Below are positions 2,876 to 52,141 of a stretch of 64,000 bases of DNA, in pieces. The stretch's first letter is position 1; each line of letters opens with the position of its first letter. A program made the translations under genes and the position numbers. This DNA comes from Escherichia coli (lineage in GTDB: Bacteria > Pseudomonadota > Gammaproteobacteria > Enterobacterales > Enterobacteriaceae). The notes beneath the pieces were generated by a model. It ran no database searches, was not told where the DNA came from, and worked only from the letters and a program-made list of their open reading frames with translations. Location of the stretch: NCBI RefSeq assembly GCF_036507355.1, contig NZ_AP027877.1, one strand, 5' to 3'.

Positions 2876-3303
2876 TGCTATCAATTTCCTGCCTGTTTAT
2901 ACCCGGCCATTGCAAGGTGAAACCCTGGCTACCGACGTCTTTAGATAAATCTTACGGTATAAATAGCACTTTTGCCTGATTTGAAATTGATACCTTTTTA
3001 ATCGTCACCTGGATGAAAATAATTCATTGATATTCAAAATTAATTTTCTACAGGAATACAGAGGCGGCGGGAAGATATACCCTTAATGCCACTGAAAAAC
3101 CACATAATCTGTACAGCAATAAAAGTCACGACCTAATCTGGCTAACAAACAATCAATTGTGATATAGTTCACAAAATTAATGAAACAAACAGAGTGTTTC
3201 ATTTTTGTGTTCTGCAAGCCCCGCGATAGCCAGAGTGTACCACGCCTCCCGTGAACAACGCCGCGCTGTCCAGGGCATCGGCTCTTTTCAGAGGAATTGT
3301 TTG

Positions 3304-3585
3304 ATGGCTACCCTCACCACTGGCATGGTTCTTCTTCGCTGGCAACTTCTTAGTGCCGTAATGATGTTTCTGGCCAGCACGCTCAACATCCGTTTTCGTC
3401 GGTCTGATTATGTCGGGCTTGCAGTGATCAGCAGCGGTCTGGGCGTGGTTTCCGCCTGCTGGTTCGCGATGGGGTTGCTTGGCATCACAATGGCGGATAT
3501 CACCGCTATCTGGCACAACATCGAGTCGGTGATGATAGAAGAGATGAATCAGACACCGCCACAGTGGCCAATGATTTTGACCTGA
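3304..3585 (+). CDS. yjcB: small inner-membrane protein YjcB
   Basis: Internal ATG of track ORF 3205-3585 gives 93 aa (MATLTTGMVLLRW...), hydrophobic; followed by a terminator. Confidence 0.65.
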   Translation: MATLTTGMVLLRWQLLSAVMMFLASTLNIRFRRSDYVGLAVISSGLGVVSACWFAMGLLGITMADITAIWHNIESVMIEEMNQTPPQWPMILT

Positions 3586-3591
3586 TACGTA

Positions 3592-3621
3592 GAAGCCTCC
3601 ATAACGGAGGCTTCTTTTTTA
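3592..3621 (+). terminator. rho-independent terminator of yjcB
   Basis: GAAGCCTCC-ATAAC-GGAGGCTTC hairpin followed by TTTTTT. Confidence 0.65.
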
Positions 3622-3683
3622 TGGCTGGCAGATGCTTTAATCATCCACCTTAAAACAATATAACCTATTGTTTTAATGACAAA

Positions 3684-4220
3684 TCAGAACGGAATATCGT
3701 CATCAAAGTCCATCGGCGGCTCGTTAGACGGCGCTGCCGGAGCGGACTGCTGCGGGCGAGACTGCGCGCCGCCGCTGAACTGATTGCCACCCTGCGGCTG
3801 CTGAGGCTGACCCCAACCGCCCTGCGGCTGACCACCACCGATATTGCCACCTGCAGGAGCGCCACCACCCTGACGACCACCCAGCATCTGCATAGTGCCG
3901 CCAACGTTCACCACAACTTCTGTGGTGTAGCGATCCTGACCAGATTGATCGGTCCATTTACGGGTACGCAGCTGACCTTCGATATAAACCTGAGAACCTT
4001 TACGCAGATATTCGCTGGCCACTTCTGCCAGTTTGCCGAACAGCACAACGCGGTGCCATTCAGTCTGCTCTTTCATCTCGCCGGTCGCTTTATCACGCCA
4101 GGATTCGGAAGTAGCCAGCGTAATGTTGGCAACTGCGCCACCATTTGGCATGTAGCGTACTTCCGGGTCCTGACCCAGATTACCAACGAGAATAACCTTG
4201 TTTACGCCTCTGCTGGCCAT
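3684..4220 (-). CDS. ssb: single-stranded DNA-binding protein
   Basis: 178 aa; OB-fold N-terminus; Gly/Gln/Pro-rich tail ending in the acidic DDDIPF tip. Confidence 0.97.
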
Positions 4221-4371
4221 GTTCGTGTCTCCTGAAAAAAAATCGTTCTGAATAAGTGTAAACGCGCGATTGTACCATTACCAATAGCGCTTTTACTATG
4301 TTGTGACCTCGGTTCCGGGAAACAAACCTGGCCAGACATTGTTACACAACACTCCGGGTAATGCATTCCAA

Positions 4372-4391
4372 TACTGTATATTCATTCAGGT
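4372..4391. promoter_or_regulatory. LexA (SOS) box in the divergent ssb-uvrA promoter region
   Basis: TACTGTATATTCATTCAGGT, CTGT-N8-type SOS operator, about 90 bp upstream of the uvrA start. Confidence 0.8.
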
Positions 4392-4474
4392 CAATTTGTG
4401 TCATAATTAACCGTTTGTAATCGCCGGTAGCACCATGCCACCGGGCAAAAAAGCGTTTAATCCGGGAAAGGTGA

Positions 4475-7297: not shown

Positions 7298-7302
7298 TCG
7301 TT

Positions 7303-7329
7303 AAGGCCGCTTTCCGAGCGGCCTTTTCC
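7303..7329. terminator. bidirectional terminator between uvrA and yjbR
   Basis: AGGCCGC-TTTCCGA-GCGGCCT hairpin followed by TTTTCC. Confidence 0.65.
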
Positions 7330-7331
7330 TT

Positions 7332-7688
7332 TCAGAGTTGCACCAGCAATTTACGTTTTTCTTCCGGCAGTAAATTCACCGCCTGCTGATAAGACGCATC
7401 CACCAGATAATAGATTTGCGAATCCGGCAGCGAACCGTCGAGATACACGGTGCTCCAGTGCGCTTTATTCAGATGGCGGCTTGGACGCACATCGCTGTGC
7501 TGCTGACGTAGCAGCTCCGCCAGCTCCGGGCTGGTTTTCAGCGAAACAGCTGGGCGATTTTCTACTTCTTTCACCATCGCAAACAGTACATCTTCCACTT
7601 TGATCTGCGTCGCTTTCCAGTCGTTATGCACGCTCTGTTCTGCGCCTGGTTTTGCCATGCAATATTGTAGCAACTCCGAAATGGTCAT
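7332..7688 (-). CDS. yjbR: YjbR-family (MmcQ/YjbR) uncharacterised protein
   Basis: 118-aa ORF in the conserved position downstream of yjbQ. Confidence 0.8.
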   Translation of the reverse strand: MTISELLQYCMAKPGAEQSVHNDWKATQIKVEDVLFAMVKEVENRPAVSLKTSPELAELLRQQHSDVRPSRHLNKAHWSTVYLDGSLPDSQIYYLVDASYQQAVNLLPEEKRKLLVQL

Positions 7689-7691
7689 TTT

Positions 7692-8108
7692 TTACTCCCC
7701 TTGTAGTGTCGCGATGATGCGACGCGATCCGCCGTGGATGCGATGTTCCCCCAGCCAAATGCCTTGCCAGGTGCCGGTCTGAATACGCCCTTTATGCACC
7801 GGCAATACAAGCGATGTTCCCAGCATTGAGGATTTGATATGAGAAGGCATATCGTCTGCTCCCTCATAGTCATGCTCATAGTTTCCATTATCGGGAACGG
7901 TGCGGAGGAAAAAACGCTCCATGTCGTGGCGTACGGTGGGATCGCAGTTCTCATTAAGTGTCAGAGAGGCGGAGGTATGTTGCAGCAACAGATGCAGTAA
8001 GCCGATGTTAACGCGCGGCATATCAGCCAGCTGATTCAGAATTTCATCCGTTACCAGATGAAACCCACGAGATTTGGCGCTAAGCGTGAGCGTCTTTTGA
8101 TACCACAT
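7692..8108 (-). CDS. yjbQ: YjbQ, UPF0047-family protein
   Basis: 138-aa ORF, 4 bp upstream of yjbR on the same strand. Confidence 0.8.
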
Positions 8109-8218
8109 GTGCTGCTCCTTGATAAAACTCTCTTAATCAGTTTGCAGCAAGACAGCGAAAGGATAAAGGTGTGATTAAAAAAACAGCATTCGGGAGAGTG
8201 TCACGCTCTCCCGCTCTG

Positions 8219-9211
<993 letters not shown>

Positions 9212-9349
9212 TTAATGAACTTAATGATACAGCATTACAAAAACAATCGAAGTTTAAAAAATAAAATTTTTATAAAGATGATCTCTGATTGACCAGAACC
9301 CTACCATACAATGGTGACTAATTTTATTACTCTCGAAGGAGATGATGAT

Positions 9350-9853
9350 ATGAATATATCATATGTGAATAGCAACAAAACGACATCTTTACCTGTTGAG
9401 CTAGATGCACTAAATAATAAAGATATCTCTTATGCCAAAGATTTTTCTTATGCCAAAGATTTCTTTTTATATATAGAAATACAGTTAAAAATTGCAAAAG
9501 ATTTTTGTAGACCTGGAGAAGAAGTATCAAGTTCTATTGCAAGTACAGTTTTTCACGCTTTTATTGATTTAGTTAACAAAATCAGGGGAAAGAAAGATTG
9601 TATGTATATTTGTACGCTTTGCTGTTTTGCCGAGGAGGTTAAAGGTGATTATTCTCATTACAGGACCTTTTCATTTGATATCGGTAATCAATATAAGGTT
9701 AAACTTACACAAAGCGGAAAAGATGAGTTCTCTTTAACTTTAGAATTTAACGATACTATAATTGAATCTCAGAAAGTCACAGGCAATAAGGCAAAGCATA
9801 TTCTTAAGGATATAGCAGAATACTATCGTAACAAACCCGGCACTTATTATTAA
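9350..9853 (+). CDS. hypothetical protein, AT-rich, between aphA and tyrB
   Basis: Track ORF 9311-9853; in-frame ATG at 9350 preceded by a strong SD (GAAGGAG); long open frame in ~30% GC DNA; internal 18-bp tandem duplication encoding SYAKDF-SYAKDF; no recognisable domain. Confidence 0.45.
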   Translation: MNISYVNSNKTTSLPVELDALNNKDISYAKDFSYAKDFFLYIEIQLKIAKDFCRPGEEVSSSIASTVFHAFIDLVNKIRGKKDCMYICTLCCFAEEVKGDYSHYRTFSFDIGNQYKVKLTQSGKDEFSLTLEFNDTIIESQKVTGNKAKHILKDIAEYYRNKPGTYY

Positions 9854-10074
9854 GTTTAATAATGATTAGAAATGCAGAAATTATTACCCCACACAAAAAA
9901 ACAGGGTAAGGAATTCCAGATAATTAGGATAATCTTAACAATAAAAGAACTAACAACGTTTATTATCTCTCACGTAGAACGATGGTATCAAAAAAATCAT
10001 CTATAAAGAAAGTGTGAAAGCGACGACAGTTTAATTTCACTGCAGGCTGGGTAATTCCAGCCTGCTTTACTGCA

Positions 10075-11268
10075 TTACATCACCGCAGCAAACGCCTTTG
10101 CCACACGTTGCACATTTGCCGTATTTAACCCGGCGACACACATGCGACCGCTGGCGATGAGATAGACACCAAATTCTTCACGTAGTCGGTCAACCTGAGC
10201 GGCACTTAAACCGGTATAACTGAACATGCCGCGCTGATTAAGCAGATAATCGAAATTGCGTTCTGGCATCTCTGTGCTCAATACCTTCACCAGTTCCTGA
10301 CGCATTGCCAGAATGCGAGTACGCATCTCTTCTACTTCCGCCAGCCAGCTGGCTTTCAATGCCTCGTCATTCAGCACCGCAGCCACCACCTGCGCACCAA
10401 AATTCGGCGGGCTGGAGTAGTTGCGGCGAACTGTTGCTTTCAATTGCCCCAGTACGCGGCCTGCAGCTTCGGCATCTTCACACAGAACAGAAAGTCCGCC
10501 AACGCGCTCGCCGTAAAGGGAGAAAATTTTCGAGAACGAATTGCTCACCAGAGCGGGTAATCCAGCGCTGGCAATGGCGCGAATGGCGTAGGCATCCTCT
10601 TCCATACCGGCACCAAATCCTTGATAGGCAATATCAAGGAATGGGATAAGCTCGCGGGCTTTGAGAATTTCAATCACCGCATCCCACTGGTCATTAGTGA
10701 GATCGGCACCCGTTGGGTTGTGGCAACATGGATGCAGCAACACAATACTGCGGGCAGGTAATGTTTTCAGCATCGCCAACAGGTCATTAAAGCGCACGCC
10801 GTTAGTCGCTTCGTCATACCAGGGGTAAGTACTTACTTCGAATCCAGCCCCGGCGAAGATTGCTACGTGGTTTTCCCAGGTAGGATCGCTGACCCAGACG
10901 CCTGATTCCGGGAAGTAGCATTTCAGGAAATCCGCGCCCACTTTCAATGCCCCTGAGCCGCCAAGGGTTTGAATGGTTGCTACGCGCTGTTGTTGCAGTA
11001 CCGGATGGTCGGCACCAAACAGCAGCGGCGCAATGGCATGGCGATAGCTGTTAAGCCCTTCCATCGGTAAATAAAGCGAAGCGCCATGAGGCTGCGCATT
11101 CAGGCGCGCTTCTGCATCAGCCACGGCTTTCAATTGTGGAATAATTCCGTCTTCGTTGTAGTACAGACCGATACTTAAATTCACTTTGTCGCTGCGAGGG
11201 TCTTCTTTAAAACGCTCCATAAGCGTAAGAATCGGGTCGCCAGCGTAGGCGTCAACTTTTTGAAACAC
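10075..11268 (-). CDS. tyrB: aromatic-amino-acid aminotransferase
   Basis: 397 aa from a GTG start ([14 protein letters not shown]...); class-I aminotransferase with PLP lysine in [16 protein letters not shown]. Confidence 0.95.
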
Positions 11269-11349
11269 GCGATGGTTCTCCAGGTTTACGGGCAGGTGGT
11301 TAAAACACAATAAACCGGAAGAAGGCGAAGATCGAGTGGATGTTCAAAG

Positions 11350-12354
11350 TCAGTCGGGAAGTTGATGAAGAATTTGCCCCAGTCGCTCTTGCAGCGACCC
11401 CGAAACCGAAAGATAAGGAATGTTCCTGCGCGATAATTCCTGTTCGTACCACGCCTGCTGCCGCGCGCGAAACGCCTCTCCTTGCCGGGTGCCATCCTGC
11501 ACAAAGGGAAATTCCGCGCCGCAAAGCACCACCAGAGAGTATTCCCGCTCCGCCAGCTGGTGAAGTTCTTGCGGGGCATGACCATATTGATCAAGGGTAT
11601 AGAACAAGGTCGTGAGTGGCGATGTGTCACATATAAGATAGCGATTAGCTTCTGCTTGTTGTTCCCGACGTACCTGTTCGCGGGCGATATGCAACAAATC
11701 GTCTGCGGTTAAAACACCATTTTTCTCTTCCCAATAGTCGCGACCAAATTCAGCGACATACGCCGTATCGAGCACGTCCGCCAGTGCTTTTGAAAGTGTG
11801 CTCTTACCGGTTGATTCGCCACCAAGCAGACAGATACGGCGAACGAAACTGCGATAAACGTCGTGCGCCAGCATGTAGCGATAACGGTGAACGTCGGAAC
11901 GAATCAGCGTTCCCGAAGGTGATTTATCGCCAAGTGGACGCTGTAATCGAACGTGTTCAACAGGTTGGGCAAAACGCAGTGCCAACACTTTAGCAAAACC
12001 GTCACCATAATCTTCTGCGGTAAATACAGCGTGTGGGCGGCAACGTAATACCTGCAGGCACAGCGTCGCCACATAATGACGATGGATGTCGGCATCGGCA
12101 TCATTATGCGGTATGGCAGGTAAGTTATAACGCGCGATCAGTTCGGGAGTCAGTACCAGAACCATCGCTCGTGGGAAGCGCACTTGCAGCCACGTCAGGC
12201 GCTTTTCAGGTTCACAGTCAGGCATTTCCGGCACGGAATAACTGATGATGAACAGTTCTTCACATTGTGCCAGCGCGGTATTAATCAACCGTTCATGACC
12301 ACAATGCAAAGGCGCGAATTTGCCAACCACCAGTCCCGTTACGAAAGGCTTCAT
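11350..12354 (-). CDS. NadR-like bifunctional NMN adenylyltransferase / ribosylnicotinamide kinase, no N-terminal HTH
   Basis: NMNAT motif GKFAPLHCGHERLI; C-terminal kinase P-loop LLGGESTGKSTLSKALA and EFGRDY, both co-linear with E. coli NadR; ATG at 12354 overlaps the stop of the upstream pnuC-like gene (ATGA); track ORF extends to a GTG at 12378. Confidence 0.85.
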   Translation of the reverse strand: MKPFVTGLVVGKFAPLHCGHERLINTALAQCEELFIISYSVPEMPDCEPEKRLTWLQVRFPRAMVLVLTPELIARYNLPAIPHNDADADIHRHYVATLCLQVLRCRPHAVFTAEDYGDGFAKVLALRFAQPVEHVRLQRPLGDKSPSGTLIRSDVHRYRYMLAHDVYRSFVRRICLLGGESTGKSTLSKALADVLDTAYVAEFGRDYWEEKNGVLTADDLLHIAREQVRREQQAEANRYLICDTSPLTTLFYTLDQYGHAPQELHQLAEREYSLVVLCGAEFPFVQDGTRQGEAFRARQQAWYEQELSRRNIPYLSVSGSLQERLGQILHQLPD

Positions 12355-12908
12355 GATGCCCGCAGCTCCTTGCGCCACTGATACAAACCATGCCAGGCGT
12401 TAATCCAGAACAGGAAATATAAACCGGCGGTCAGGTTTAAACCGCGAGTCATATACAGTGGAACCGCCAGGGTATTCACCGCTAACCAGACGTACCAGTT
12501 TTCGATCCTTCTTCCCATCAACATGAATTGCGCCAGAACGCTGAAGGTCAAAATCAACGAATCCAGCCAGGGGGCCCAGGCATTGGTAAAGGTGTGGAGC
12601 AAAAAGCCGTAGCCGCCTGCCACGACAACGGCACAGAGTAACAAGAGGAAAAAGTGACTGGCTTGCGTCCGACGCACTGGCAAGACATCGCCACCCTGAC
12701 CTTTCAGCCAGTGGATCCAACCGGTGATGCTGGTCGCGATGAAGAATAACTGGAGCGTGACATCGGCATAGAGTTGCACGGACCAAAAAACCCAGCCATA
12801 AAGCATGCTACCAATTATGCCGATCCACCACGTATGCACATTGTTTCTGGCAGCCAGCCAGACGGAAACCGCGTATGCCAGACACGCGGCGATTTCTGAA
12901 TAAGACAT
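12351..12908 (-). CDS. PnuC-family nicotinamide-riboside-type transporter, short form
   Basis: 185-aa polytopic membrane protein; Trp-rich helices with QLYA..LQ.FF.A....GW..W and ENW..W..N motifs matching PnuC; SD AGGGAGGG 4 nt upstream; only ~22 bp after the alr stop. Confidence 0.85.
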   Translation of the reverse strand: MSYSEIAACLAYAVSVWLAARNNVHTWWIGIIGSMLYGWVFWSVQLYADVTLQLFFIATSITGWIHWLKGQGGDVLPVRRTQASHFFLLLLCAVVVAGGYGFLLHTFTNAWAPWLDSLILTFSVLAQFMLMGRRIENWYVWLAVNTLAVPLYMTRGLNLTAGLYFLFWINAWHGLYQWRKELRAS

Positions 12909-12930
12909 TGTCCCTCCCTGGAGACGGATA

Positions 12931-14010
12931 TTAATCCACGTATTTCATCGCGACCCTTGAAGTCAGGCGCGTAATAAGTTCGTAAGCGCTTACTTTCGTC
13001 ATTTCAGCGATACGTTCTACGGGCAAACCTTCACCCCACAAAATGACCGGGTCCCCGGCTTTATCCTGTGCCTGTGGACCTAAGTCTACGCAGATCATAT
13101 CCATCGCGACTCGCCCGACAATCGGCACTTCGCGACCGTTCACCAGCACTGGCGTACCAGACGGCGCAGCGCGCGGATAACCATCGCCATAGCCCATCGC
13201 GACTACGCCAAGACGGGTATCACGTTCGCTTACCCAGGTTCCACCATAACCAACAGGTTCTCCGGCTTTATGCTCACGCACGGCAATCAGGCTGGAGGTT
13301 AGTGACATCACTGGCTGACAGCCAAAATCGGCACCGGTGGAGCGATCTTCCAGCGGCGAGACGCCATAAAGAATGATGCCCGGGCGCACCCAGTCAAAAT
13401 GCGACTGTGGCCACAGCAGAATGCCACCCGATGCGGCAATGGAACGTTGACCAGGTTTGCCTTCGCAAAAGGTATTAAAGATAGCGAGTTGTTTCTCGGT
13501 TGCGCCGCATTTTGGTTCATCCGCGCGCGCAAAATGGCTGACGATATTCACCGGCTGACGAACGTTTTTGCACTGGGTCAGGCGATGATAAAACGCCTCA
13601 GCCTGTTCCGGCCTTACGCCCAGACGGTGCATACCGGTATCGAGTTTCATCCAGACGGTAACCGGCTCTTCCAGATGCGCCTCTTCCAGCGCAGCCAGCT
13701 GTTCTTCGTTATGTACGGCGGTATGAAAATGTTGCGCAGAAATCGTCGGCAGATCTCTGGCATCAAAAAAGCCTTCGAGTAACAGTACAGGTTTGGTGAT
13801 TCCCCCCGCACGCAGTCGCAGAGCTTCTTCGAGACGGGCTACGCCAAAGGCGTCAGCATCGGGGAGCGTTCGCGCGGTCTCAAGAAGACCGTGACCATAA
13901 GCGTTCGCTTTCACCACCGCAACCATTTTACTGGCAGGAGCCAGTTCACGAAGACGTTGCAGGTTGTGTCGCAGAGCGCGGCGGTTAATCACAACAGTTG
14001 CCGCTTGCAT
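12931..14010 (-). CDS. alr: alanine racemase (biosynthetic)
   Basis: 359 aa; PLP-binding [11 protein letters not shown] near the N-terminus. Confidence 0.97.
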
Positions 14011-14062
14011 TTGTGTTCCTTGATAAGTGTTTGCTTTAATTACCTAATTCATAAAATAATTA

Positions 14063-15478
14063 TTATTCGTCGTCGTACTGCGGCCCCGCATAGTTGTCGA
14101 AGCGCGACCATTGACCGTTAAAGGTCAGGCGTACCGTCCCGATTGGGCCGTTACGTTGTTTACCGATAATAATTTCCGCGATGCCTTTTAAATCACTGTT
14201 TTCGTGATACACCTCATCACGATAGATAAACATGATCAAGTCCGCATCCTGCTCGATGGAGCCGGATTCACGCAAGTCGGAGTTGACCGGGCGTTTGTCG
14301 GCACGTTGTTCCAGAGAACGGTTCAACTGGGACAGCGCCACCACCGGCACGTTCAGTTCTTTCGCCAGTGCTTTCAGCGAGCGGGAGATTTCTGCAATTT
14401 CCAGCGTACGGTTATCGGAAAGTGCCGGTACGCGCATCAGTTGCAGGTAGTCGATCATGATAAGCCCGATGCCGCCGTGTTCACGGGCAATACGGCGTGC
14501 GCGGGAACGCACTTCCGTTGGCGTCAAGCCGGAGGAGTCATCGATATAGATATTGCGTTTTTCGAGCAAAATACCCATGGTGCCGGAAATGCGTGCCCAG
14601 TCTTCATCATCGAGTTGCCCGGTACGGATTTTAGTCTGGTCAACGCGCGACAGCGACGCCAGAGAACGCATCATGATCTGTTCTGATGGCATCTCCAGCG
14701 AGAAGATAAGTACCGGTTTATCCTGCAACATCGCCGCGTTTTCGACGAGGTTCATCGCAAATGTTGTTTTACCCATCGACGGACGCGCGGCGACGATGAT
14801 CAAATCCGACGGCTGCAAGCCAGCGGTTTTTTTGTTGAGATCGTCATAACCGGTGTTTACCCCGGTAACGCCATCGTGTGGCTGCTGAAACAACTGCTCA
14901 ATACGCGCCACGGTTGCGTCGAGCACATCGGCGATGTTCTTCGGCCCTTCGTCTTTGTTTGCACGACTTTCGGCAATTTTAAAGACGCGGGATTCAGCCA
15001 GGTCCAGCAGATCTTCGCTGGTGCGCCCCTGTGGATCAAAACCGGCTTCGGCAATCTCATTCGCAACCGAGATCATCTCGCGAACAACGGCACGTTCACG
15101 CACGATGTCCGCATAAGCACTGATGTTCGCCGCACTTGGCGTATTTTTTGACAGTTCTGCCAGATAAGCAAATCCACCGACGCTATCGAGTTGCCCCTGG
15201 CGTTCCAGCGATTCCGCAAGAGTAATCAGATCGATAGGACTACCGCTTTCCTGCAAACGCGCCATTTCAGTAAAGATATGACGGTGTGGGCGGGTGTAAA
15301 AATCGTCTGCTACCACACGCTCGGCTACATCATCCCAGCGTTCGTTATCCAGCATTAAACCGCCCAACACCGACTGCTCCGCTTCGATCGAGTGCGGAGG
15401 CACTTTCAGCCCGGCAACTTGTGGATCGCGTTCGCGGGGTTCAGCCTGCTGTTTGTTGAAGGGTTTATTTCCTGCCAT
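14063..15478 (-). CDS. dnaB: replicative DNA helicase DnaB
   Basis: 471 aa; RecA-like domain with Walker A AARPSMGKTTFA; C-terminus ...GPQYDDE. Confidence 0.98.
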   Translation of the reverse strand: MAGNKPFNKQQAEPRERDPQVAGLKVPPHSIEAEQSVLGGLMLDNERWDDVAERVVADDFYTRPHRHIFTEMARLQESGSPIDLITLAESLERQGQLDSVGGFAYLAELSKNTPSAANISAYADIVRERAVVREMISVANEIAEAGFDPQGRTSEDLLDLAESRVFKIAESRANKDEGPKNIADVLDATVARIEQLFQQPHDGVTGVNTGYDDLNKKTAGLQPSDLIIVAARPSMGKTTFAMNLVENAAMLQDKPVLIFSLEMPSEQIMMRSLASLSRVDQTKIRTGQLDDEDWARISGTMGILLEKRNIYIDDSSGLTPTEVRSRARRIAREHGGIGLIMIDYLQLMRVPALSDNRTLEIAEISRSLKALAKELNVPVVALSQLNRSLEQRADKRPVNSDLRESGSIEQDADLIMFIYRDEVYHENSDLKGIAEIIIGKQRNGPIGTVRLTFNGQWSRFDNYAGPQYDDE

Positions 15479-15560
15479 AGTGAATGGAGTTACCGAGATA
15501 AAGAATGGGTCGAAACTTTACCATATGAAGCAGACCCTGACGATACGTTCTGGAGGACAC

Positions 15561-16544
15561 ATGGCAACACGAATTGAATTTCACAAGCACGGTGGCCCGG
15601 AAGTACTTCAAGCCGTAGAGTTCACTCCTGCCGATCCGGCGGAGAATGAAATCCAGGTCGAAAATAAAGCCATCGGCATCAATTTTATCGACACATATAT
15701 CCGCAGCGGCCTTTACCCGCCGCCATCGCTACCCAGCGGATTAGGTACCGAAGCGGCAGGCATCGTGAGTAAAGTCGGCAGTGGTGTAAAGCATATTAAG
15801 GATGGCGATCGTGTAGTCTATGCGCAGTCGGCGTTAGGCGCTTACAGCTCTGTGCATAACATTAATGCGGATAAAGCGGCGATTCTGCCTGCGGCAATTT
15901 CTTTTGAGCAAGCTGCGGCATCCTTCCTGAAAGGCTTAACGGTTTATTATCTGCTGCGCAAAACCTATGAAATTAAACCCGATGAGCAGTTCCTGTTCCA
16001 CGCAGCAGCTGGCGGCGTTGGCTTGATTGCCTGCCAGTGGGCAAAAGCCCTGGGCGCGAAACTTATCGGCACCGTAGGAACTGCGCAAAAAGCGCAGAGC
16101 GCGCTAAAAGCGGGCGCGTGGCAGGTTATTAACTATCGTGAAGAGAATCTGGTCGAGCGGTTAAAAGAGATCACCGGTGGTAAAAAAGTGCGCGTGGTGT
16201 ACGATTCCGTGGGCAGAGACACCTGGGAACGGTCGCTGGATTGCCTGCAACGCCGCGGCTTAATGGTGAGTTTTGGCAACTCATCAGGTGCGGTTACCGG
16301 TGTGAACTTAGGCATTCTCAATCAGAAAGGCTCGTTGTATGTGACACGCCCTTCCCTGCAAGGCTATATCACCACGCGGGAGGAATTAACCGAGGCCAGT
16401 AATGAACTGTTCTCTTTGATTGCCAGCGGTGTGATTAAGGTCGATGTCGCCGAGCAGCAGAAATATCCGCTGAAGGATGCGCAGCGTGCGCATGCGATTC
16501 TGGAAAGCCGGGCGACGCAAGGTTCCAGCCTGTTGATTCCATAA
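15561..16544 (+). CDS. qor: NADPH:quinone oxidoreductase
   Basis: Internal ATG of track ORF gives 327 aa (MATRIEFHKHGGPEVL...); MDR-family fold with AAAGGVG nucleotide-binding motif. Confidence 0.95.
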   Translation: MATRIEFHKHGGPEVLQAVEFTPADPAENEIQVENKAIGINFIDTYIRSGLYPPPSLPSGLGTEAAGIVSKVGSGVKHIKDGDRVVYAQSALGAYSSVHNINADKAAILPAAISFEQAAASFLKGLTVYYLLRKTYEIKPDEQFLFHAAAGGVGLIACQWAKALGAKLIGTVGTAQKAQSALKAGAWQVINYREENLVERLKEITGGKKVRVVYDSVGRDTWERSLDCLQRRGLMVSFGNSSGAVTGVNLGILNQKGSLYVTRPSLQGYITTREELTEASNELFSLIASGVIKVDVAEQQKYPLKDAQRAHAILESRATQGSSLLIP

Positions 16545-18078: not shown

Positions 18079-18485
18079 TGCGCTGGTTTGGTTGATTTTT
18101 TGCATTTCAGAATTACCGTGCATTTTCAAATGTAAAGATTATTTTATCGATATATCATTGAGTTATGTTATTCAGCATCACTGTTCAGGAGGCTCAATAG
18201 CGGGATACTATACCATAACAACAGGAAGCGCCTGTCTCATTGCAAAAGAAAATTGAGATCCTCTCAAGGCATGAAGCTCTCACGAAGTGATGGAAATAAT
18301 CTTATTAGCCGTTAGCTTTGTTAAGGCCAATGATAAACAATCCAGGTTCGACGATAAATAAAAATCACACATTAAACTCCGGTGATATCTCTCCCTGCTA
18401 ATAGCACTGATAGAGAAAAAAAGAACCCAATAAGCATTGGGTTCTTTTATGTAATGCCTTCTATACCATCGAAGAACTTCACATA

Positions 18486-40676: not shown

Positions 40677-40682
40677 GAATGA

Positions 40683-40716
40683 AGGTGCCAGTGAGTGCGA
40701 AAACTGGCACCTTTCC
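40683..40716. terminator. bidirectional terminator (yjbT / yjbH 3' ends)
   Basis: AGGTGCCAG...CTGGCACCT hairpin followed by TTT. Confidence 0.55.
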
Positions 40717-45055: not shown

Positions 45056-45058
45056 TGA

Positions 45059-46708
45059 TTAACCGCGCCACGCTTTATAGCGGTTAATCAGACCATTGGT
45101 CGAGCTATCGTGGCTGCTGATTTCTTTATCATCTTTCAGCTCTGGCAGAATACGGTTCGCCAGTTGTTTACCCAGCTCCACGCCCCACTGGTCGAAGGTG
45201 AAGATGTTCAGGATCACGCCCTGAGTAAAGATTTTGTGCTCATACAGCGCAATCAACGCACCCAGGCTGAACGGAGTGATTTCACGCAGCAGGATGGAGT
45301 TGGTCGGGCGGTTACCTTCGAACACTTTGAACGGCACCACGTAGTCAAGCGTTGCCGGATCTTTACCCTGATCGCGATATTCCTGCTCAACCACTTCGCG
45401 GGATTTACCAAACGCCAGCGCTTCGGTCTGAGCAAAGAAGTTAGACAGCAGTTTCTGGTGATGATCAGAGAGCGGGTTATGGGTGATAGCCGGGGCGATG
45501 AAATCGCACGGTACCATTTTGGTTCCCTGATGGATCAGCTGGTAGAACGCGTGCTGACCGTTAGTGCCTGGTTCACCCCAGATAATCGGGCCAGTCTGGT
45601 AATCCACAACGTTACCGTTACGGTCAACATACTTACCGTTGGACTCCATATTGCCCTGCTGGAAGTACGCCGCAAAACGGTGCATATACTGGTCATACGG
45701 CAGAATCGCTTCAGTTTCCGCACCAAAGAAATTGTTGTACCAGATGCCAATCAGCGCCAGCAAGACAGGCAGGTTTTTCTCGGCAGGCGTGGTGGAGAAA
45801 TGCTTGTCCATCGCGTGTGCGCCAGAAAGCAGTTCAACGAAGTTATCAAAGCCGATGGAGAGAACAATCGACAGGCCAATCGCTGACCACAAAGAGTAAC
45901 GGCCGCCGACCCAGTCCCAGAACTCGAACATGTTGGCAGTATCAATACCAAACTCGCCAACGGCTTTGGCATTGGTTGAGAGCGCCGCAAAGTGTTTCGC
46001 AACGTGTTTTTCATCACCTGCCGCTTTCAGGAACCAGTCACGCGCGCTATGGGCGTTGGTCATGGTTTCCTGAGTGGTGAAGGTTTTAGATGCTACCAGG
46101 AACAGCGTGGTTTCCGGGTTTACTTTTTTCAGCACTTCCGCGATATGAGTCCCATCGACGTTAGAAACAAAGTGCATGTTCAGGTGATTTTTGTACGGAC
46201 GCAGTGCTTCGGTCACCATGTACGGGCCGAGGTCAGAACCACCGATCCCGATGTTCACTACGTCAGTGATTGCTTTGCCGGTATAACCCTTCCACTCACC
46301 GGAAATAATCGCTTCCGAGAAGGTTTTCATCTTCTCCAGCACCGCGTTGACTTCCGGCATTACGTCTTTGCCATCAACCAGAATCGGGGTATTGCTACGG
46401 TTACGCAGCGCTACGTGCAGCACGGCGCGGTTTTCAGTGCGGTTGATCTTCTCGCCAGAGAACATCGACTTAATCGCGCCCGCCAGATCGCACTCTTTCG
46501 CCAGATCTTGTAATTTCGCCAGCGTCTCTTCAGTGATGCGGTTTTTGGAGTAATCCACCAGCATCTGATCGTCGAAGGTTGCGGAGAACTTAGAAAAACG
46601 ATCGCCGTCTTTAGCAAAAAGATCGGCGATCGTAACGTCTTTCATTTCATCGAAGTGTTTCTGTAGTGCCTGCCAGGCAGCGGTCTGCGTTGGATTGATG
46701 TTTTTCAT
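45059..46708 (-). CDS. pgi: glucose-6-phosphate isomerase
   Basis: ATG at 46708 gives 549 aa ([23 protein letters not shown]...). Confidence 0.98.
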
Positions 46709-46939
46709 TAGCAATACTCTTCTGATTTTGAGAATTGTGACTTTGGAAGATTGTAGCGCCAGTCACAGAAAAATGTGATGGTTTTAGTGCCGTTAGCGTA
46801 ATGTTGAGTGTAAACCCTTAGCGCAGTGAAGCATTTATTAGCTGAACTACTGACCGCCAGGAGTGGATGAAAAATCCGCATGACCCCGTCGTTGACAACC
46901 GCCCCGCTCACCCTTTATTTATAAATGTACTACCTGCGC

Positions 46940-47232
46940 TAGCGCAGGCCAGAAGAGGCGCGTTGCCCAAGTAACGGTGTTGGAGGAGCCAGTCCTGTGA
47001 TAACACCTGAGGGGGTGCATCGCCGAGGTGATTGAACGGCTGGCCACGTTCATCATCGGCTACAGGGGCTGAATCCCCTGGGTTGTCACCAGAAGCGTTC
47101 GCAGTCGGGCGTTTCGCAAGTGGTGGAGCACTTCTGGGTGAAAATAGTAGCGAAGTATCGCTCTGCGCCCACCCGTCTTCCGCTCTTCCCTTGTGCCAAG
47201 GCTGAAAATGGATCCCCTGACACGAGGTAGTT
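46940..47232 (+). promoter_or_regulatory. lysC 5' leader / lysine riboswitch (L-box)
   Basis: ~300-nt structured leader upstream of lysC containing AGAGGCGC and GGAGGAGCC-type L-box segments; boundaries approximate. Confidence 0.7.
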
Positions 47233-48582
47233 ATGTCTGAAATTGTTGTCTCCAAATTTGGCGGTACCAGCGTAGCTGATTTTGACGCCATGAACCGCAG
47301 CGCTGATATTGTGCTTTCTGATGCCAACGTGCGTTTAGTTGTCCTCTCGGCTTCTGCTGGTATCACTAATCTGCTGGTCGCTTTAGCTGAAGGGCTGGAA
47401 CCTGGCGAGCGATTCGAAAAACTCGACGCTATTCGCAACATCCAGTTTGCCATTCTGGAACGTCTGCGTTACCCGAACGTTATCCGTGAAGAGATTGAAC
47501 GTCTGCTGGAGAACATTACTGTTCTGGCAGAAGCGGCGGCGCTGGCAACGTCTCCGGCGCTGACAGATGAACTGGTCAGCCACGGCGAGCTGATGTCGAC
47601 CCTGCTGTTTGTCGAGATCCTGCGCGAACGCGATGTTCAGGCACAGTGGTTTGATGTACGTAAAGTGATGCGTACCAACGACCGATTTGGTCGTGCAGAG
47701 CCAGATGTAGCCGCGCTGGCGGAACTGGCCGCGCTGCAGCTGCTCCCACGCCTCAATGAAGGCTTAGTGATCACCCAGGGATTTATCGGTAGCGAAAATA
47801 AAGGTCGTACAACGACGCTTGGCCGTGGAGGCAGCGATTATACGGCAGCCTTGCTGGCGGAGGCTTTACACGCATCTCGTGTTGATATCTGGACCGACGT
47901 CCCGGGCATCTACACCACCGATCCACGCGTGGTTTCCGCAGCAAAACGCATTGATGAAATCGCGTTTGCCGAAGCAGCAGAGATGGCAACTTTTGGTGCA
48001 AAAGTACTGCATCCGGCAACATTGCTACCCGCAGTACGCAGCGATATCCCGGTCTTTGTCGGCTCCAGCAAAGACCCACGCGCAGGTGGTACGCTGGTGT
48101 GCAATAAAACTGAAAATCCGCCGCTGTTCCGCGCGCTGGCGCTTCGTCGCAATCAGACTCTGCTCACTTTGCACAGCCTGAATATGCTGCATTCTCGCGG
48201 CTTCCTCGCGGAAGTTTTCGGCATCCTCGCGCGGCATAATATTTCGGTAGACTTAATCACCACGTCAGAAGTGAGCGTGGCATTAACCCTTGATACCACC
48301 GGTTCAACCTCCACTGGCGATACGTTGCTGACGCAATCTCTGCTGATGGAGCTTTCCGCACTGTGCCGGGTGGAGGTGGAAGAAGGTCTGGCGCTGGTCG
48401 CGTTGATTGGCAATGACCTGTCAAAAGCCTGCGGCGTTGGCAAAGAGGTGTTCGGCGTACTGGAACCGTTCAACATTCGCATGATTTGTTACGGCGCATC
48501 CAGCCATAACCTGTGCTTCCTGGTGCCCGGCGAAGATGCCGAGCAGGTGGTGCAGAAGCTGCATTTTAATTTGTTTGAGTAA
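47233..48582 (+). CDS. lysC: lysine-sensitive aspartokinase III
   Basis: 449 aa; MSEIVVSKFGGTSVADFDAMNRSADIVL...; two C-terminal ACT domains. Confidence 0.98.
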   Translation: MSEIVVSKFGGTSVADFDAMNRSADIVLSDANVRLVVLSASAGITNLLVALAEGLEPGERFEKLDAIRNIQFAILERLRYPNVIREEIERLLENITVLAEAAALATSPALTDELVSHGELMSTLLFVEILRERDVQAQWFDVRKVMRTNDRFGRAEPDVAALAELAALQLLPRLNEGLVITQGFIGSENKGRTTTLGRGGSDYTAALLAEALHASRVDIWTDVPGIYTTDPRVVSAAKRIDEIAFAEAAEMATFGAKVLHPATLLPAVRSDIPVFVGSSKDPRAGGTLVCNKTENPPLFRALALRRNQTLLTLHSLNMLHSRGFLAEVFGILARHNISVDLITTSEVSVALTLDTTGSTSTGDTLLTQSLLMELSALCRVEVEEGLALVALIGNDLSKACGVGKEVFGVLEPFNIRMICYGASSHNLCFLVPGEDAEQVVQKLHFNLFE

Positions 48583-48726
48583 TATTTCCCTACTGGCGTA
48601 TAACGCTCACCAATTGTTATACGCCATCCTCACTGAAAACATAGATTAAATAATATCTGAAAAGCAAAATCACTCCTGTAGAACAGTATTATAACCACCG
48701 AAAAATATCATTTAACAGGAGTGTTA

Positions 48727-49656
48727 ATGGCTACTTTAATGGAAAAGGATGCACTTTTAAACGGCGCCAGTCAGTGCATCGCGTTTTTATCAAATATCGT
48801 CGACAGTTGTTTTTCCTCACAAGTTCAGGACTCAGACGATGAGCTATCACAATTAGTCAGCTATCGCGACAATCTTTATTCCACTCCAGCAGAAATTGTT
48901 GATTTTACACAGGGAATGTTACGCCTCCAGCAGGTCAGAAAAAAGTATCAGCGTGAATTTAATAATACTGCGCATTCAGAAAATAAAGCGTCTTTTGATT
49001 CTATTTGGCAGCGTCTGACAAACCATGACGTCACATCCCAGCAGAGTCCCATTGGTTTTGTTTTAGGTGGACAACCAGGAGCCGGAAAATCCATCCTAAT
49101 CGAATTAGCAAAAAGGGAAACAAAGAATAATATAATGATTATTAATGGTGATGATTTCAGATTTCTACACCCTGATTTTAATTATATATATCAAACTTAT
49201 GGCGACGATTTTGTTACCCATACGGCAAAATTTTCCGGCGAAACGGTCGAACGTGCAATAGAGAGGGCCATAGCCAATAAACTCAATATTGTTGTCGAAG
49301 GAACATTTCGTAATGCCGCTACGCCGCTACAAACATTAAAAAAACTCAAAGATGCAGGCTACCGAACAGAAGTCATGATAAAAACCACCTCAGCGGCATT
49401 AAGCTGGGAAAGCACCAACGAACGGTATAATAAGGACAAAGAGGCGGGAAATATCGCCCGCAAAGTGGATAAAAATCACCATGATATCGTCACCGATTTG
49501 CTAGCAGAAAATGCCAGCAAGGTGTTTGCTTCAAACCTGGCAGATAAGTTTGCGGTGTATTCGCGTGAGAAGATGATATTTAGTTCACAAGCGGCAACCA
49601 ATTGCGATATTGCAACGCTTATACAAAATGAAATCAGCGGAAGTGCACAAGAATAA
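48727..49656 (+). CDS. ezeT: EzeT-like zeta-toxin family kinase with N-terminal cis-inhibitory extension
   Basis: ATG at 48727 with SD AGGAG 6 nt upstream gives 309 aa (track ORF starts at GTG 48721); Walker A GGQPGAGKS matching zeta/PezT GGQPGSGKT, preceded by ~110 aa non-kinase domain; name assigned from memory of the E. coli EzeT description. Confidence 0.7.
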   Translation: MATLMEKDALLNGASQCIAFLSNIVDSCFSSQVQDSDDELSQLVSYRDNLYSTPAEIVDFTQGMLRLQQVRKKYQREFNNTAHSENKASFDSIWQRLTNHDVTSQQSPIGFVLGGQPGAGKSILIELAKRETKNNIMIINGDDFRFLHPDFNYIYQTYGDDFVTHTAKFSGETVERAIERAIANKLNIVVEGTFRNAATPLQTLKKLKDAGYRTEVMIKTTSAALSWESTNERYNKDKEAGNIARKVDKNHHDIVTDLLAENASKVFASNLADKFAVYSREKMIFSSQAATNCDIATLIQNEISGSAQE

Positions 49657-49679
49657 TAAAAGCTGATGACCTGAAATAA

Positions 49680-49700
49680 CGCCGGGCATCACGCCCGGCG
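49680..49700. terminator. bidirectional hairpin between convergent ezeT-like and nucleotidyltransferase genes
   Basis: CGCCGGGC-ATCA-GCCCGGCG inverted repeat between the two stops. Confidence 0.5.
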
Positions 49701-50480
49701 CATTACCGTCTGGTACAGTAAGCTATCCAGTTTCTTAACGTCCCCTTCTCTACTATCCGGTAACACAGGCGGAATTTCCCCACGCGCCAGTTCCGCATGG
49801 ATAAACGCATGTAGCAATGGACGGCGTGGGCCATATTCCGCTTCACCCGCACGCTGTTTACGTTCCAGTAATTCATCTATTTCTGCGCGTAAGGCCGCAT
49901 CCAACTCACTTCCCGCCAGCAATTCGGAAAAACGCATTGGCGGTACGCCTTTTCCCGCTTCAACCCAACGCACGGCCAGCAACGGACGCAGCACGTAAAA
50001 GTATTTTTTCAGTCGAACTTCATCGCCCTGCAAATATCCGCGGAAGTTTTTCTGCGCCATCGAATAGTAATGCCAGCGCGCACGCAGCGGAGAAAACCAC
50101 GTTGGGACCATTGCCTTAAGCGCCGTTATCGTTTCTTCATCTTGTTGATAGACCACCGGAGAATCCAGCCATTCTATCAGCGTCGGGTTCGCGCCTTTCA
50201 ATAATCCCAGCGCCTTACGCCACTCCCAACCGGAAACATCTAACTCGTCGTCGATGGGCAGCTCAATAACATCGCGCGGTGACTCTACTCGCAGATACCA
50301 TTCCAGCGGGTGAACATACAAAAACCGTACATCGTAGTCGCTGTCGGGCGAGGCAAATCCCCAACCGCGACTCCCCGATTCACAGGCGTACAGTACTTTC
50401 ACATCATACCGCCGTTCAATTTCTTTTAACTGCTGCGATACCCTTTCGCGCATCGCAGCACTGACTCCATTTAATGGCAT
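49689..50480 (-). CDS. Pol-beta-superfamily nucleotidyltransferase, uncharacterised
   Basis: 263 aa from the ATG at 50480 (track ORF starts at GTG 50489 overlapping the upstream stop); GS-x10-DxD motif in VLYACESGSRGWGFASPDSDYDVRF; second gene of a two-gene operon. Confidence 0.7.
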   Translation of the reverse strand: MPLNGVSAAMRERVSQQLKEIERRYDVKVLYACESGSRGWGFASPDSDYDVRFLYVHPLEWYLRVESPRDVIELPIDDELDVSGWEWRKALGLLKGANPTLIEWLDSPVVYQQDEETITALKAMVPTWFSPLRARWHYYSMAQKNFRGYLQGDEVRLKKYFYVLRPLLAVRWVEAGKGVPPMRFSELLAGSELDAALRAEIDELLERKQRAGEAEYGPRRPLLHAFIHAELARGEIPPVLPDSREGDVKKLDSLLYQTVMRRA

Positions 50481-50485
50481 GTTAC

Positions 50486-51613
50486 TCACCCTTTGATATT
50501 AACCAACCCGTGCAGAACCTGATCCAGACCGCCAAATACAGAGATGTTATCAATCCGCTCAGCCACTCTCTCCAGCGTTTCCAGCTCTTTTAAACGCAAC
50601 GCTACCGGATTGTTCTCCATGACTTTGGCGGTGTTCAGTAACGAGCGCGTCGCTGCCGTTTCTTCACGTCGGCGAATCACATTCGCCTGCGCAGATTTCT
50701 CTGCCTCAACCAGCTGCGCAAGGATATTTTTCATATCGCCAGGCAGGACGATATCTTTCACCCCTAATGAAGCAATCTCCATACCGAACGGCTTCATGCG
50801 CGATTTCACCTGTTCGCTGACAACGTCATCAATGACCTGTTTATCTTCCAGCAATTCATCCAGCGTACGCGTACCTACCACTTCACGCAGTGCAAATTGC
50901 AATTCCCGATACAAATGATCAATCGGCTTCGTTAACTGACTAAATGCTAATAACACGTCGCTGTAGCGCCAGTTAGCCGCGAGGTTAATCCGCAGATTGA
51001 CCTTATCTTTCGTTAAGATTTCTTGCCCGCTGACTTCCAGTACCTGCAAGCGGGTGTCAACCACTTCAGCTTCAACCAGATGGTTAATTTTCCAGTACGC
51101 GGTAAGCCCCGGCGGTAACAGCGCCTGCGTTTCACCATCGATTTTCAGCACGCCTACATGCCAGGCCGGAACCTGCACCGTCAGTATCGCATCGCGGCCT
51201 TTAACAACTCCTTTGCGCCGTGGCTGTAATACCGCATTCATCACCTCCGTTTGTACCGGGACTTGCTGCGTATTCATCCGCACCAGCGTCAAATCATCCT
51301 CTACACGCCAGTACAAACGACGCGTTGATGGCGGCAGGATCTCCAACAAAATACCGTCCATATACAACACCCCGGCTTCAGTCTCCGACAAGTCTGCCAC
51401 CAGGCAATATTTCTCCACCCAATCAGGCTGAAAGCGGCGCAAATAATCCGCAAGCACGTCGGGAACTTCGCTACCATCCAGCGTAATCAGCAACACTTCC
51501 GGGGTATTTAACCAGGGTAAAATATGCTCGCCTGCATGCAGCACTTTGTAGTAATCGCCGTTTCTGGAGAGTAATGCCAGCTGATCTTTTCTTACGCTTA
51601 TTTTTTTAATCAT
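50486..51613 (-). CDS. SPFH/band-7 (stomatin-like) domain protein with unique N-terminal domain
   Basis: 375 aa; C-terminal half carries SPFH signature (DKVNLRINLAANWRY..., ...LVEAEKSAQANVIRRREETAATRSLLNTAKVMENNPVALRLKELETLERVAERI...); N-terminal ~185 aa lack a hydrophobic anchor; ATG at 51613 with AAGGA SD. Confidence 0.75.
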   Translation of the reverse strand: MIKKISVRKDQLALLSRNGDYYKVLHAGEHILPWLNTPEVLLITLDGSEVPDVLADYLRRFQPDWVEKYCLVADLSETEAGVLYMDGILLEILPPSTRRLYWRVEDDLTLVRMNTQQVPVQTEVMNAVLQPRRKGVVKGRDAILTVQVPAWHVGVLKIDGETQALLPPGLTAYWKINHLVEAEVVDTRLQVLEVSGQEILTKDKVNLRINLAANWRYSDVLLAFSQLTKPIDHLYRELQFALREVVGTRTLDELLEDKQVIDDVVSEQVKSRMKPFGMEIASLGVKDIVLPGDMKNILAQLVEAEKSAQANVIRRREETAATRSLLNTAKVMENNPVALRLKELETLERVAERIDNISVFGGLDQVLHGLVNIKG

Positions 51614-52141
51614 TATCTATTCCTTGCTTAATAGCCGTCGCGGAAGCAGACACGAAGCGACAGGGGAATTCCCTTTTGCCTGTTACCCGGCATCTTTATC
51701 GGCGACGTTATCGGGGACCGCAGACTGCGCAATCCCTCATTTTTTATTTAATAAGTTACAACCAGTATTCATTTCAGGAATGAATGTGGGAATCGAACCC
51801 GTAATTGGCGTCAAAGGCTGATGGAACACGCCCGGAAAACAGCCTGGCCGTTCCTGGTGTGCCGACGGGGTTTAACCCCCTTTGTAATTCAGTATCAACG
51901 CAAAAGTGTTATTGCGAGAAGCGTGCCAGAAGTGATAAAAAATTTTAATTACATGAAAAATAAAGATTTAATAAATCATTATTGTTTGTAGGGGGAGATT
52001 TTTTCGCTAAATTTGTATCTGTATTTATCGTCAATTATCAAGAAAGATAAATATTTAAGAAGAGAACAAAGGAATATTATCAGTTCTGCTTGCAAATAAA
52101 TTCCCGTACACTGAACTATCCGATTAACAGAGGGCACCATC

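Follow-up and report, generated by a model that had tools for sequence, protein, structure and literature searches.

A stem-loop without a U-tract between lysC and the ezeT toxin gene of Escherichia coli: homologues, stem pairing, and a probable role at the lysC transcript end

The stretch of Escherichia coli DNA analyzed here (the window; 64,000 nucleotides of contig NZ_AP027877.1) carries a perfect inverted repeat between the end of lysC and the start of an ezeT-like toxin gene, and the question raised by this locus is whether the repeat belongs to the gene that it follows, to the gene that it precedes, or to the junction between the two. All three possibilities were raised in the first-pass annotation, as a hairpin that attenuates lysC, an operator for the autoregulation of the toxin gene, or a remnant of an insertion junction. 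The presence of EzeT next to lysC in strains of phylogroup B1 is already known, and the common allele encodes the characterized EzeT protein, WP_000212693.1 (PMC10532202). No published description of the lysC hairpin was found, and the literature on lysC, tailocins, and Mor provided nothing relevant.

The hairpin and its surroundings in the window

The repeat is present, with arms of 11 bp (TGGCGTATAAC at 48594-48604 and GTTATACGCCA at 48616-48626) rather than the 10 bp first reported, and the form GGCGTATAAC-N11-GTTATACGCC has a single occurrence in the window, at 48595-48625. When folded as RNA, the hairpin has 12 pairs, the twelfth of which is a G48605-U48615 wobble that closes a loop of 9 nt, and its minimum free energy is -17.5 kcal/mol, in comparison with -6.5 +/- 2.2 kcal/mol for 200 dinucleotide shuffles (z = -5.0), none of which was as good. 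The placement described in the first-pass annotation, close after lysC and approximately 100 bp before ezeT, was also borne out, as the stem begins 11 nt after the stop codon and ends 100 nt before the ATG (48727), and so was the absence of a T-run 3' of the repeat, on either strand. The hairpin was not called in a consensus terminator scan of the window, and a scan of 46600-49800 against Rfam 15 (E <= 1) found no family at the repeat, the only match being the lysine riboswitch upstream of lysC (Table 1).

The window contains six perfect inverted repeats with arms of 11 bp or more and loops of 3-20 nt, in comparison with 0.3 expected from Markov-simulated sequence, so that the lysC hairpin belongs to a non-random class. 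The other five, which have short loops, are found at 389-419, 3650-3676, 18419-18448, 40682-40713, and 45056-45090; several are flanked by A/T runs and have a terminator-like look, and the last overlaps the 3' end of pgi. A further terminator-like hairpin, with a T-rich tail, lies inside the last codons of lysC, at 48549-48575 (GGTGCAGAAGCTGCATT TTAATTTGTT), where the window-type allele has Phe (TTT) in place of the Ser (AGT) of K-12, which makes the tail more T-rich. This structure is probably incidental.

Table 1. Features from the lysC leader to the slipin gene, with their positions in the window.
Feature	Position	Strand	Basis or remark
Lysine riboswitch, 5' control element of the lysC transcription unit	46945..47141	+	Rfam RF00168, 99.5 bits, E = 1.5e-26
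lysC CDS (aspartokinase III), stop codon TAA at 48580-48582	47233..48582	+	ORF list; lysC annotation in matching E. coli records
Segment of 3,429 bp (ezeT, NTase, slipin), in place of the 122 bp of K-12-type genomes that include the classical lysC terminator	48583..52011	.	
Spacer from lysC stop to stem, 11 nt	48583..48593	+	Poorly conserved; 4/11 positions differ in Escherichia sp. MOD1-EC7003
Hairpin left arm, TGGCGTATAAC plus G48605 (loop-closing G-U in RNA)	48594..48605	+	
Hairpin loop	48606..48614	+	Variable within E. coli (A48612G in the common allele); 4-13 nt in homologues
Hairpin right arm, U48615 plus GTTATACGCCA	48615..48626	+	
A-rich, C>G stretch after the stem; possible Rho-loading region (inferred)	48627..48706	+	Criterion from PMC6061677
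ezeT cassette; other genomes have the ~15.7-kb mor/phage-tail cluster here	48628..49673	+	Left limit approximate, +/- 3 nt after the stem
Second hairpin, CACUCCUGU (48671-79) with ACAGGAGUG (48715-23); repeat CACTCCTGT / ACAGGAGTG	48671..48723	+	Anti-SD against the ezeT SD
Predicted ezeT -10	48690..48695	+	TATAAC in the window, TATAAT in nearly all other E. coli, TGTTATAAT in MOD1-EC7003
ezeT-like CDS, 309 aa; Zeta_toxin domain at residues 102-282	48727..49656	+	ORF list, Pfam
GC-rich hairpin GCCGGGCATCACGCCCGGC, between the ends of ezeT and the convergent NTase gene	49681..49699	.	
RlaP-family nucleotidyltransferase (NTase) gene	49689-50489	-	Found in both the ezeT state and the tail-cluster state
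Slipin/Band_7 gene	50486-51613	-	Found in both the ezeT state and the tail-cluster state

States of the lysC-yjbD interval and pairing in the stem

The end of lysC was matched in 5,424 of 5,426 complete E. coli genomes, and the match runs past the stop codon in only 1,433, every one of which contains a gene for a "zeta toxin family protein". The 144-nt spacer between lysC and ezeT is found at one place in each of these same 1,433 genomes and nowhere else in the 5,426; the hairpin, where present in this form, is the first element after the lysC stop codon, with ezeT always alongside. A dispersed repeat of the REP/BIME type was rejected on the basis of this single place per genome.

The comparison with the lysC 3' flank of K-12, recommended in the first-pass annotation, shows that the K-12-type genomes lack both the repeat and the rest of the segment, and have a classical lysC terminator there, GGCCTGGAAGCTATATTTCGGGCC followed by GTATTGATTTTCTT. 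Taken alone, this comparison places the repeat on the variable side. The pair of NTase and slipin genes is found in 1,631 genomes, that is, approximately 200 more than ezeT, and in these additional genomes (PEC403, for example), a cluster of approximately 15.7 kb extends from the lysC stop codon to the NTase gene, at the place taken in the window by the repeat and ezeT, with a convergent gene for a Mor-family activator, followed by holin, transglycosylase, and P2/Mu-like tail genes. Directly 3' of the lysC stop codon, these tail-state genomes have a perfect 11-bp hairpin, also without a U-tract, either GGTGAATAGCG-ACCCACGA-CGCTATTCACC or, in a second allele, GGCGAGTTGCG-ACCCCATAT-CGCTACTCGCC. 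The similarity of the window to the mor-state genomes ends a few nucleotides past the 3' side of the stem (CGCCAT.CC), and restarts at 49674. The ezeT and tail states therefore have the hairpin (left) and the NTase-slipin pair (right) in common, with only the middle differing, and the GC-rich hairpin at 49681-49699, which is common to the tail-state genomes, therefore lies outside the ezeT cassette. The first-pass annotation had held that the repeat would be simply the lysC terminator if it stood unchanged after lysC in genomes that lack the islet; this is essentially what is found in the genomes without ezeT, albeit with homologous hairpins that are not identical.

The same layout of lysC, mor, and tail genes is found in Salmonella, where GGCGTATAGCGC-TTGTC-GCGCTATACGCC lies between lysC and mor, after a REP-like insert. 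In Superficieibacter electus and one other lineage, TGGCGTATAGC-GAAG/GACG-GCTATACGCCA is nearly the sole content of the 42-nt gap between the stop codons, while Enterobacter hormaechei has TGGCGTAA(C)GC-ATAGAAA-GC(T)TTACGCCA. In this ancestral arrangement, the gap between the convergent lysC and mor genes is 42-57 nt long, and is filled by a single hairpin. Escherichia sp. MOD1-EC7003 has the gene order of the window (lysC-hairpin-ezeT-NTase-slipin-yjbD), with the hairpin TGGCGTATAGC-GTTCACCTGTT-GCTATACGCCA. Three contigs from a viral database, with an 88%-identical Mor, have TGGCGTATAG-N13-CTATACGCC immediately after the mor stop codon, and a tblastn search found no lysC near mor in these contigs, which ties the hairpin to the mor end of the cluster. 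Judged by their sequences, the hairpins of the ezeT state, the tail state, and the other genera are homologous; loop lengths range between 4 and 13 nt, and all 11 versions lack a U-tract on both strands.

The type of structure found at the end of lysC follows the orientation of the neighboring gene. Where the gene 3' of lysC is co-directional (yjbD in the K-12-type E. coli, and the gene of an SBF-family transporter in Citrobacter, Kluyvera, and Enterobacter), lysC is closed by a classical terminator, formed by a hairpin plus a U-tract, and where the neighbor is, or was, the convergent mor, lysC ends in a hairpin without a U-tract. Given that one or the other is found in each state and genus, lysC is consistently hairpin-ended.

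These arrangements suggest an order of events in which the ancestor, as seen in several genera, would have had a tail cluster with a terminal hairpin in the lysC-yjbD interval, and in which mor and the tail genes would have been replaced in an Escherichia lineage by the ezeT cassette of approximately 1.05 kb (about 48628-49673). Since the genes directly 3' of the hairpin are those that the cassette replaced, the structure is today flanked by lysC and ezeT. The window hairpin is nearer to the Salmonella/Superficieibacter form than to the tail-state alleles of E. coli, which implies that the replacement is old or that a foreign allele was involved. The idea of an insertion-junction remnant is supported insofar as the hairpin is a remnant, but one of an earlier lysC/mor junction, which is older than the ezeT cassette.

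The lysC-yjbD interval can be described as a multi-state hotspot, in which lysC is followed by (a) the terminator alone, as in the K-12 type; (b) ezeT, NTase, and slipin; (c) the Mor/phage-tail cluster, NTase, and slipin, in E. coli, Salmonella, Enterobacter, and Superficieibacter; or (d) the SBF-family transporter gene, in Citrobacter, Kluyvera, and Enterobacter. The cluster of PEC403 (locus 431-16116) and that of Salmonella (locus from 3983) encode a Mor-family activator, a holin, a lytic transglycosylase, and a full contractile-tail set, and the 15.7-kb cluster, which has no annotated head or replication genes, has a tailocin-like look and is conserved beside lysC in several genera. In E. 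coli MSB1_4I (locus from 3039), an IS1 element interrupts the tail-state hairpin within its right arm, and an IS4 disrupts the NTase gene downstream. A mosaic unique among the 5,426 genomes was found in E. coli O157:H7 TR01 (NZ_CP033605.1, locus 1501-1526), which has a K-12-like lysC-yjbD spacing, and in which the first 26 nt after the lysC stop codon are the spacer and left arm of the window plus GCTC, joined directly to the K-12 terminator's right arm and U-tract. Neither hairpin is intact in this fusion of the left half of one to the right half of the other, which is either a rare recombinant or an assembly chimera.

Some other searches returned no additional homologues. A metagenome scan anchored on the flanks recovered 23 contigs, all with common E. 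coli alleles and no new stem variants. A scan of viral contigs for the arms picked up a single Firmicutes-type phage lineage, five contigs of which have GGCGTATAGC-N9-GCTATACGCC ahead of a T-rich tail (TTATTAAATTT), with the arms of the MOD1-EC7003 version; the context is unrelated, and the likeness was therefore judged to be due to chance or convergence. The resemblance of the first 22 nt of the window past the lysC stop codon to the Citrobacter/Kluyvera flank (p ~0.04, uncorrected; p ~0.65 for locus L009) was not accepted as homology.

Within E. coli, approximately 11 of the 144 columns of the spacer are variable, none of them in the stem (roughly p = 0.2 by chance), and the region is so young (95-99% identity) that this invariance is uninformative by itself. 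More can be read from MOD1-EC7003, in which lysC is 96% identical to that of the window and ezeT 85.5% (14.5% DNA difference), with changes at 4 of the 11 positions of the spacer and 3 of 11 in the loop, and at only two of the 22 stem positions, which together form one compensatory exchange of an A:T for a G:C pair (48603/48617). In an alignment of 11 sequences over the 12-pair stem, in which the E. hormaechei row is misaligned and counts against the structure, 88.6% of the cells are paired, in comparison with 20-52% when the partners are slid. Both sides have changed in four of the 12 pairs (CG/UA, UA/AU, AU/GC, and GC/AU), against a shuffle mean of 1.2, a count of four being reached by nine of 500 shuffles, and the covariation score of 0.200 (vs. 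0.109) was reached by none of the 500; as the pairs of the ezeT-state stem are all Watson-Crick, this covariation is compatible with an RNA or a DNA hairpin, and with selection on either strand. On the evidence of the alignment, the stem is kept by selection for base pairing, with the covariation coming from few independent lineages. The conservation of the outer stem (GGCGTA/TACGCC) across genera is stronger than pairing alone requires, while two E. coli alleles change it in a compensatory manner.

The upstream region and relatives of ezeT

The relatives of ezeT have approximately 75 nt upstream of the ATG in common with it, including a TATAAT at a fixed distance from the Shine-Dalgarno (SD) sequence, which makes 48690-48695 the likely -10 of a promoter belonging to ezeT itself. 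Sigma-70 consensus scans of the window, the common allele, and locus L009 called no ezeT promoter, which is attributed to a poor -35, so that the -10 is assigned by conservation only. In the window, the last and most conserved position of this element (48695) is changed, giving TATAAC in place of TATAAT, and a strain with this sequence may express ezeT poorly from its own promoter.

The ezeT SD (AGGAG, 48717-21) forms part of a second hairpin, and the predicted -10 falls in the loop of this structure. The in silico probability of AGGAG being unpaired is 0.0 in the RNA read through from lysC, and 0.7 in the short 5' UTR that would start from the predicted ezeT promoter. The second hairpin is thus predicted to sequester the SD in the read-through RNA only, and could possibly provide a second layer of insulation for ezeT. 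Its pairing is weaker in MOD1-EC7003, although still there, and an A to G change in E. coli ZH177 keeps a G-U pair.

The ezeT gene of the window is a mosaic in relation to the common E. coli allele between 48760 and 49160 (codons ~12-145). The identity is 98-99% in the upstream spacer, 74-89% in the 5' third of the ORF, which encodes the antitoxin domain, and 91-95% in the remainder, and the protein is 88-89% identical to the common EzeT. This pattern suggests either a recombination breakpoint or the fast evolution of the cis-antitoxin domain.

Elsewhere, the N-terminal part of EzeT is homologous to separate antitoxin ORFs of 82 aa. Pairs formed by an unfused 82-aa ORF and a zeta toxin gene, located in plasmid leading regions and in other chromosomes, are 68-70% identical to EzeT over the toxin domain and lack the repeat, as does a Pseudocitrobacter relative with 63% identity in a different neighborhood. 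At four of these loci (L055, L056, L058, and L059, 2763-3800 in each), the 82-aa ORF begins with MATLMEKDALLNG, as in the N-terminus of EzeT, and overlaps a zeta toxin gene of 232-267 aa, and some of the unfused relatives found in plasmid leading regions lie beside ParB and PsiA genes. These pairs offer direct comparative support for the origin of EzeT by the fusion of a two-gene epsilon/zeta operon. The ezeT homologue of a Pseudocitrobacter MAG is preceded (about 2480-2590) by what we take to be a candidate repeat of the ERIC/IRU type (…CACCCCAGTCACGTACTTATGTACGCTCCTGGGGATTC…). A tblastn search against plasmids found no close ezeT on genuine plasmids, and the two close matches are E. coli records of chromosome size.

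Candidate roles of the hairpin and known systems

The hairpin is read here, with a probability of approximately 0.6, as a structure-selected RNA 3'-end stem-loop of the lysC unit, inherited from the lysC/mor junction and kept through the replacement by the ezeT cassette. The lysC hairpin of the first-pass annotation is retained in this reading as a 3'-end stem-loop, but not as an attenuator. In the absence of a U-tract, the hairpin alone is probably not an efficient intrinsic terminator. Dar & Sorek found stem-loops with no U-rich tail or upstream A-tract, and a mild downstream C>G bias, at the precise steady-state 3' ends of Rho-dependent E. coli transcripts, with rut sites just downstream, and provided evidence that such stem-loops block PNPase and RNase II (PMC6061677). 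The window hairpin is likewise a stable stem-loop with neither a U-rich tail nor an upstream A-tract, and the C/G ratio is 2.0-2.4 in 60-nt windows over 48580-48699, and about 2-2.4 over the 80 nt or so that follow the stem, which is a mild C excess, in a region that is 44% A and only 18% C. This likeness underlies the proposal that the hairpin protects the lysC 3' end after Rho-dependent termination.

The RNA polymerase would pass the lysC stop codon into the untranslated spacer, where Rho would load on the untranslated C>G RNA just downstream and terminate transcription, and 3'-5' exonucleases would then trim the transcript back to the hairpin, which would, in turn, define and protect the 3' end of the lysC mRNA. 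In the ancestral arrangement, the same hairpin would also have protected the mor mRNA, on the other strand. A by-product, in the present arrangement, would be a reduction of read-through, which may help to insulate ezeT from the riboswitch-controlled transcription of lysC. Given that the sole barrier between lysC and ezeT is a hairpin without a U-tract, some lysC transcription may nevertheless read into ezeT. It is very unlikely, however, that this read-through couples the expression of EzeT, whose toxin activity halts peptidoglycan synthesis at the first committed step, to the supply of lysine and diaminopimelate, with the anti-SD hairpin (48671-48723) acting as a conditional translational gate. 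If this were the case, read-through would matter most in this window, with its ezeT -10 weakened to TATAAC.

The hairpin might, instead, terminate lysC transcription on its own, as an intrinsic (Rho-independent) terminator that does the work of the classical one of the K-12 type, given that it occupies the position at which K-12-type E. coli and other genera have classical terminators after lysC, with a stable, GC-containing stem of 12 pairs, 11 nt past the TAA, and that some relatives have short loops of 4-5 nt. This is unlikely, however, as none of the 11 versions has a U-tract on either strand, the tail of the window hairpin being AUCCUCACUGAAAA, with three or four U in the 14 nt after the stem, in comparison with nine of 14 in K-12, and as the consensus scan passed it over. 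An operator, that is, a palindrome of duplex DNA bound by a dimeric regulator of ezeT, such as EzeT itself or another factor, would account for a perfect palindrome upstream of a toxin-antitoxin (TA) gene, and for the conservation of the outer arm sequence across genera; palindromic operators are a frequent means of autoregulation in type II TA loci (PMC4826407). The hairpin is nevertheless found without ezeT, in approximately 200 E. coli genomes and in several genera, and is missing before the Pseudocitrobacter homologues and the unfused epsilon/zeta relatives, in which only the ~75 nt proximal to the ATG are alike, so that it is not co-inherited with the TA gene across contexts. In addition, its center (48610) lies approximately 92 bp upstream of the likely transcription start of the predicted ezeT promoter, which is expected at about 48702, neither overlapping nor adjoining the -10, and the half-site spacing varies from 4 to 13 nt, with stem changes that are compensatory rather than one-sided, which argues against a dimeric DNA-binding protein. 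The Pfam matches of EzeT are only Zeta_toxin, AAA_33, and KAP_NTPase (Zeta_toxin/P-loop), with no recognizable DNA-binding domain, although a novel fold is conceivable. The autoregulatory operator proposed in the first-pass annotation is largely refuted by these observations, and a duplex-DNA operator for any other regulator of ezeT is very improbable.

Two further readings relate to the history of the locus. The hairpin may have acted as a landmark for recombination, either as a DNA hairpin or cruciform, or as a recombinase site, at which alternative cassettes, the tail cluster or ezeT, are inserted or swapped downstream of lysC, in a multi-state hotspot where the ezeT state parts from the tail state only a few nucleotides past the stem on its 3' side, where the hairpin accompanies the mor end even outside the lysC context, and where an IS1 has entered the right arm in one genome. 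The attC sites of integrons have R''/R' cores of the form RYYYAAC / GTTRRRY in an imperfect palindrome of 57-141 bp, with an integrase nearby. The arms of the window hairpin resemble these cores with one mismatch each, but the likeness to AAC/GTT is lost in the homologues (GTATAGC/GCTATAC), and the element, present in one copy per genome, has only 33 nt, well under the attC sizes, with no annotated integrase nearby, so that an attC site was rejected. Given also that there is no integrase or transposase gene in or beside the segment, that no flanking direct repeats were found, and that the right-hand junction has no matching repeat, a recombination landmark of any kind appears improbable. A similarly low likelihood is given to the hairpin being without function, as a relic of the former lysC/mor junction still awaiting decay. 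Its origin as the leftover of an earlier arrangement is well supported, and the youth of the E. coli region means that the invariance of the stem says little, but decay is difficult to reconcile with compensatory changes at four stem positions across lineages in which the spacer and loop change freely, or with a perfect stem in two Escherichia species whose ezeT genes are 14.5% apart.

The reading of the hairpin as a 3'-end stem-loop of lysC has some wider implications. It replaces the operator reading, which was tempting but wrong, with one that is testable, and, for the biology of EzeT, it shows what stands between the toxin gene and the strongly regulated gene upstream of it. It also suggests how the ezeT locus was assembled, with a toxin cassette of approximately 1 kb entering a former phage-tail slot, in which the terminal hairpin and the NTase-slipin neighbors were retained.

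Among known systems, the palindromic operators of type II TA loci are similar in that a perfect palindrome lies upstream of a TA gene, but the window hairpin is phylogenetically unlinked to ezeT, and misplaced in relation to its promoter. The lysC terminators of the K-12 type (GGCCTGGAAGCTATATTTCGGGCC + GUAUUGAUUUUCUU) and of Citrobacter, Kluyvera, and Enterobacter (AGCCGGGCTCGAACCCGGCTTTTTT) are comparable in their position (8-30 nt past the stop codon) and stem stability, but have the U-tract that is absent here, and no sequence homology. In the bidirectional intrinsic terminators described for convergent genes, the hairpin is flanked by an A-tract and, on the opposite side, by a U-tract. 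The ancestral hairpin, placed alone between the stop codons of the convergent lysC and mor genes, resembles these terminators in its layout, but has neither tract. The stem-loops of Rho-dependent transcripts (PMC6061677) are alike in structure, through the stable stem-loop just past the stop codon, the lack of a U-rich tail or A-tract, and perhaps the mild downstream C>G bias, although the loop of the window element (9-11 nt) is on the long side, being longer than typical terminator loops, and its ancestral setting serves two convergent genes. In kind, the hairpin is an ordinary transcript-end stem-loop; the novelty lies in the fact that homologues occur in several genera, that the stem covaries, and that it outlasted a cassette swap. 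Kept by compensatory evolution across genera and through the replacement of its neighbor, it offers a clean natural example of stem-loops without a U-tract and, for this reason, a convenient test case for whether such structures define and protect the 3' ends of Rho-terminated mRNAs.
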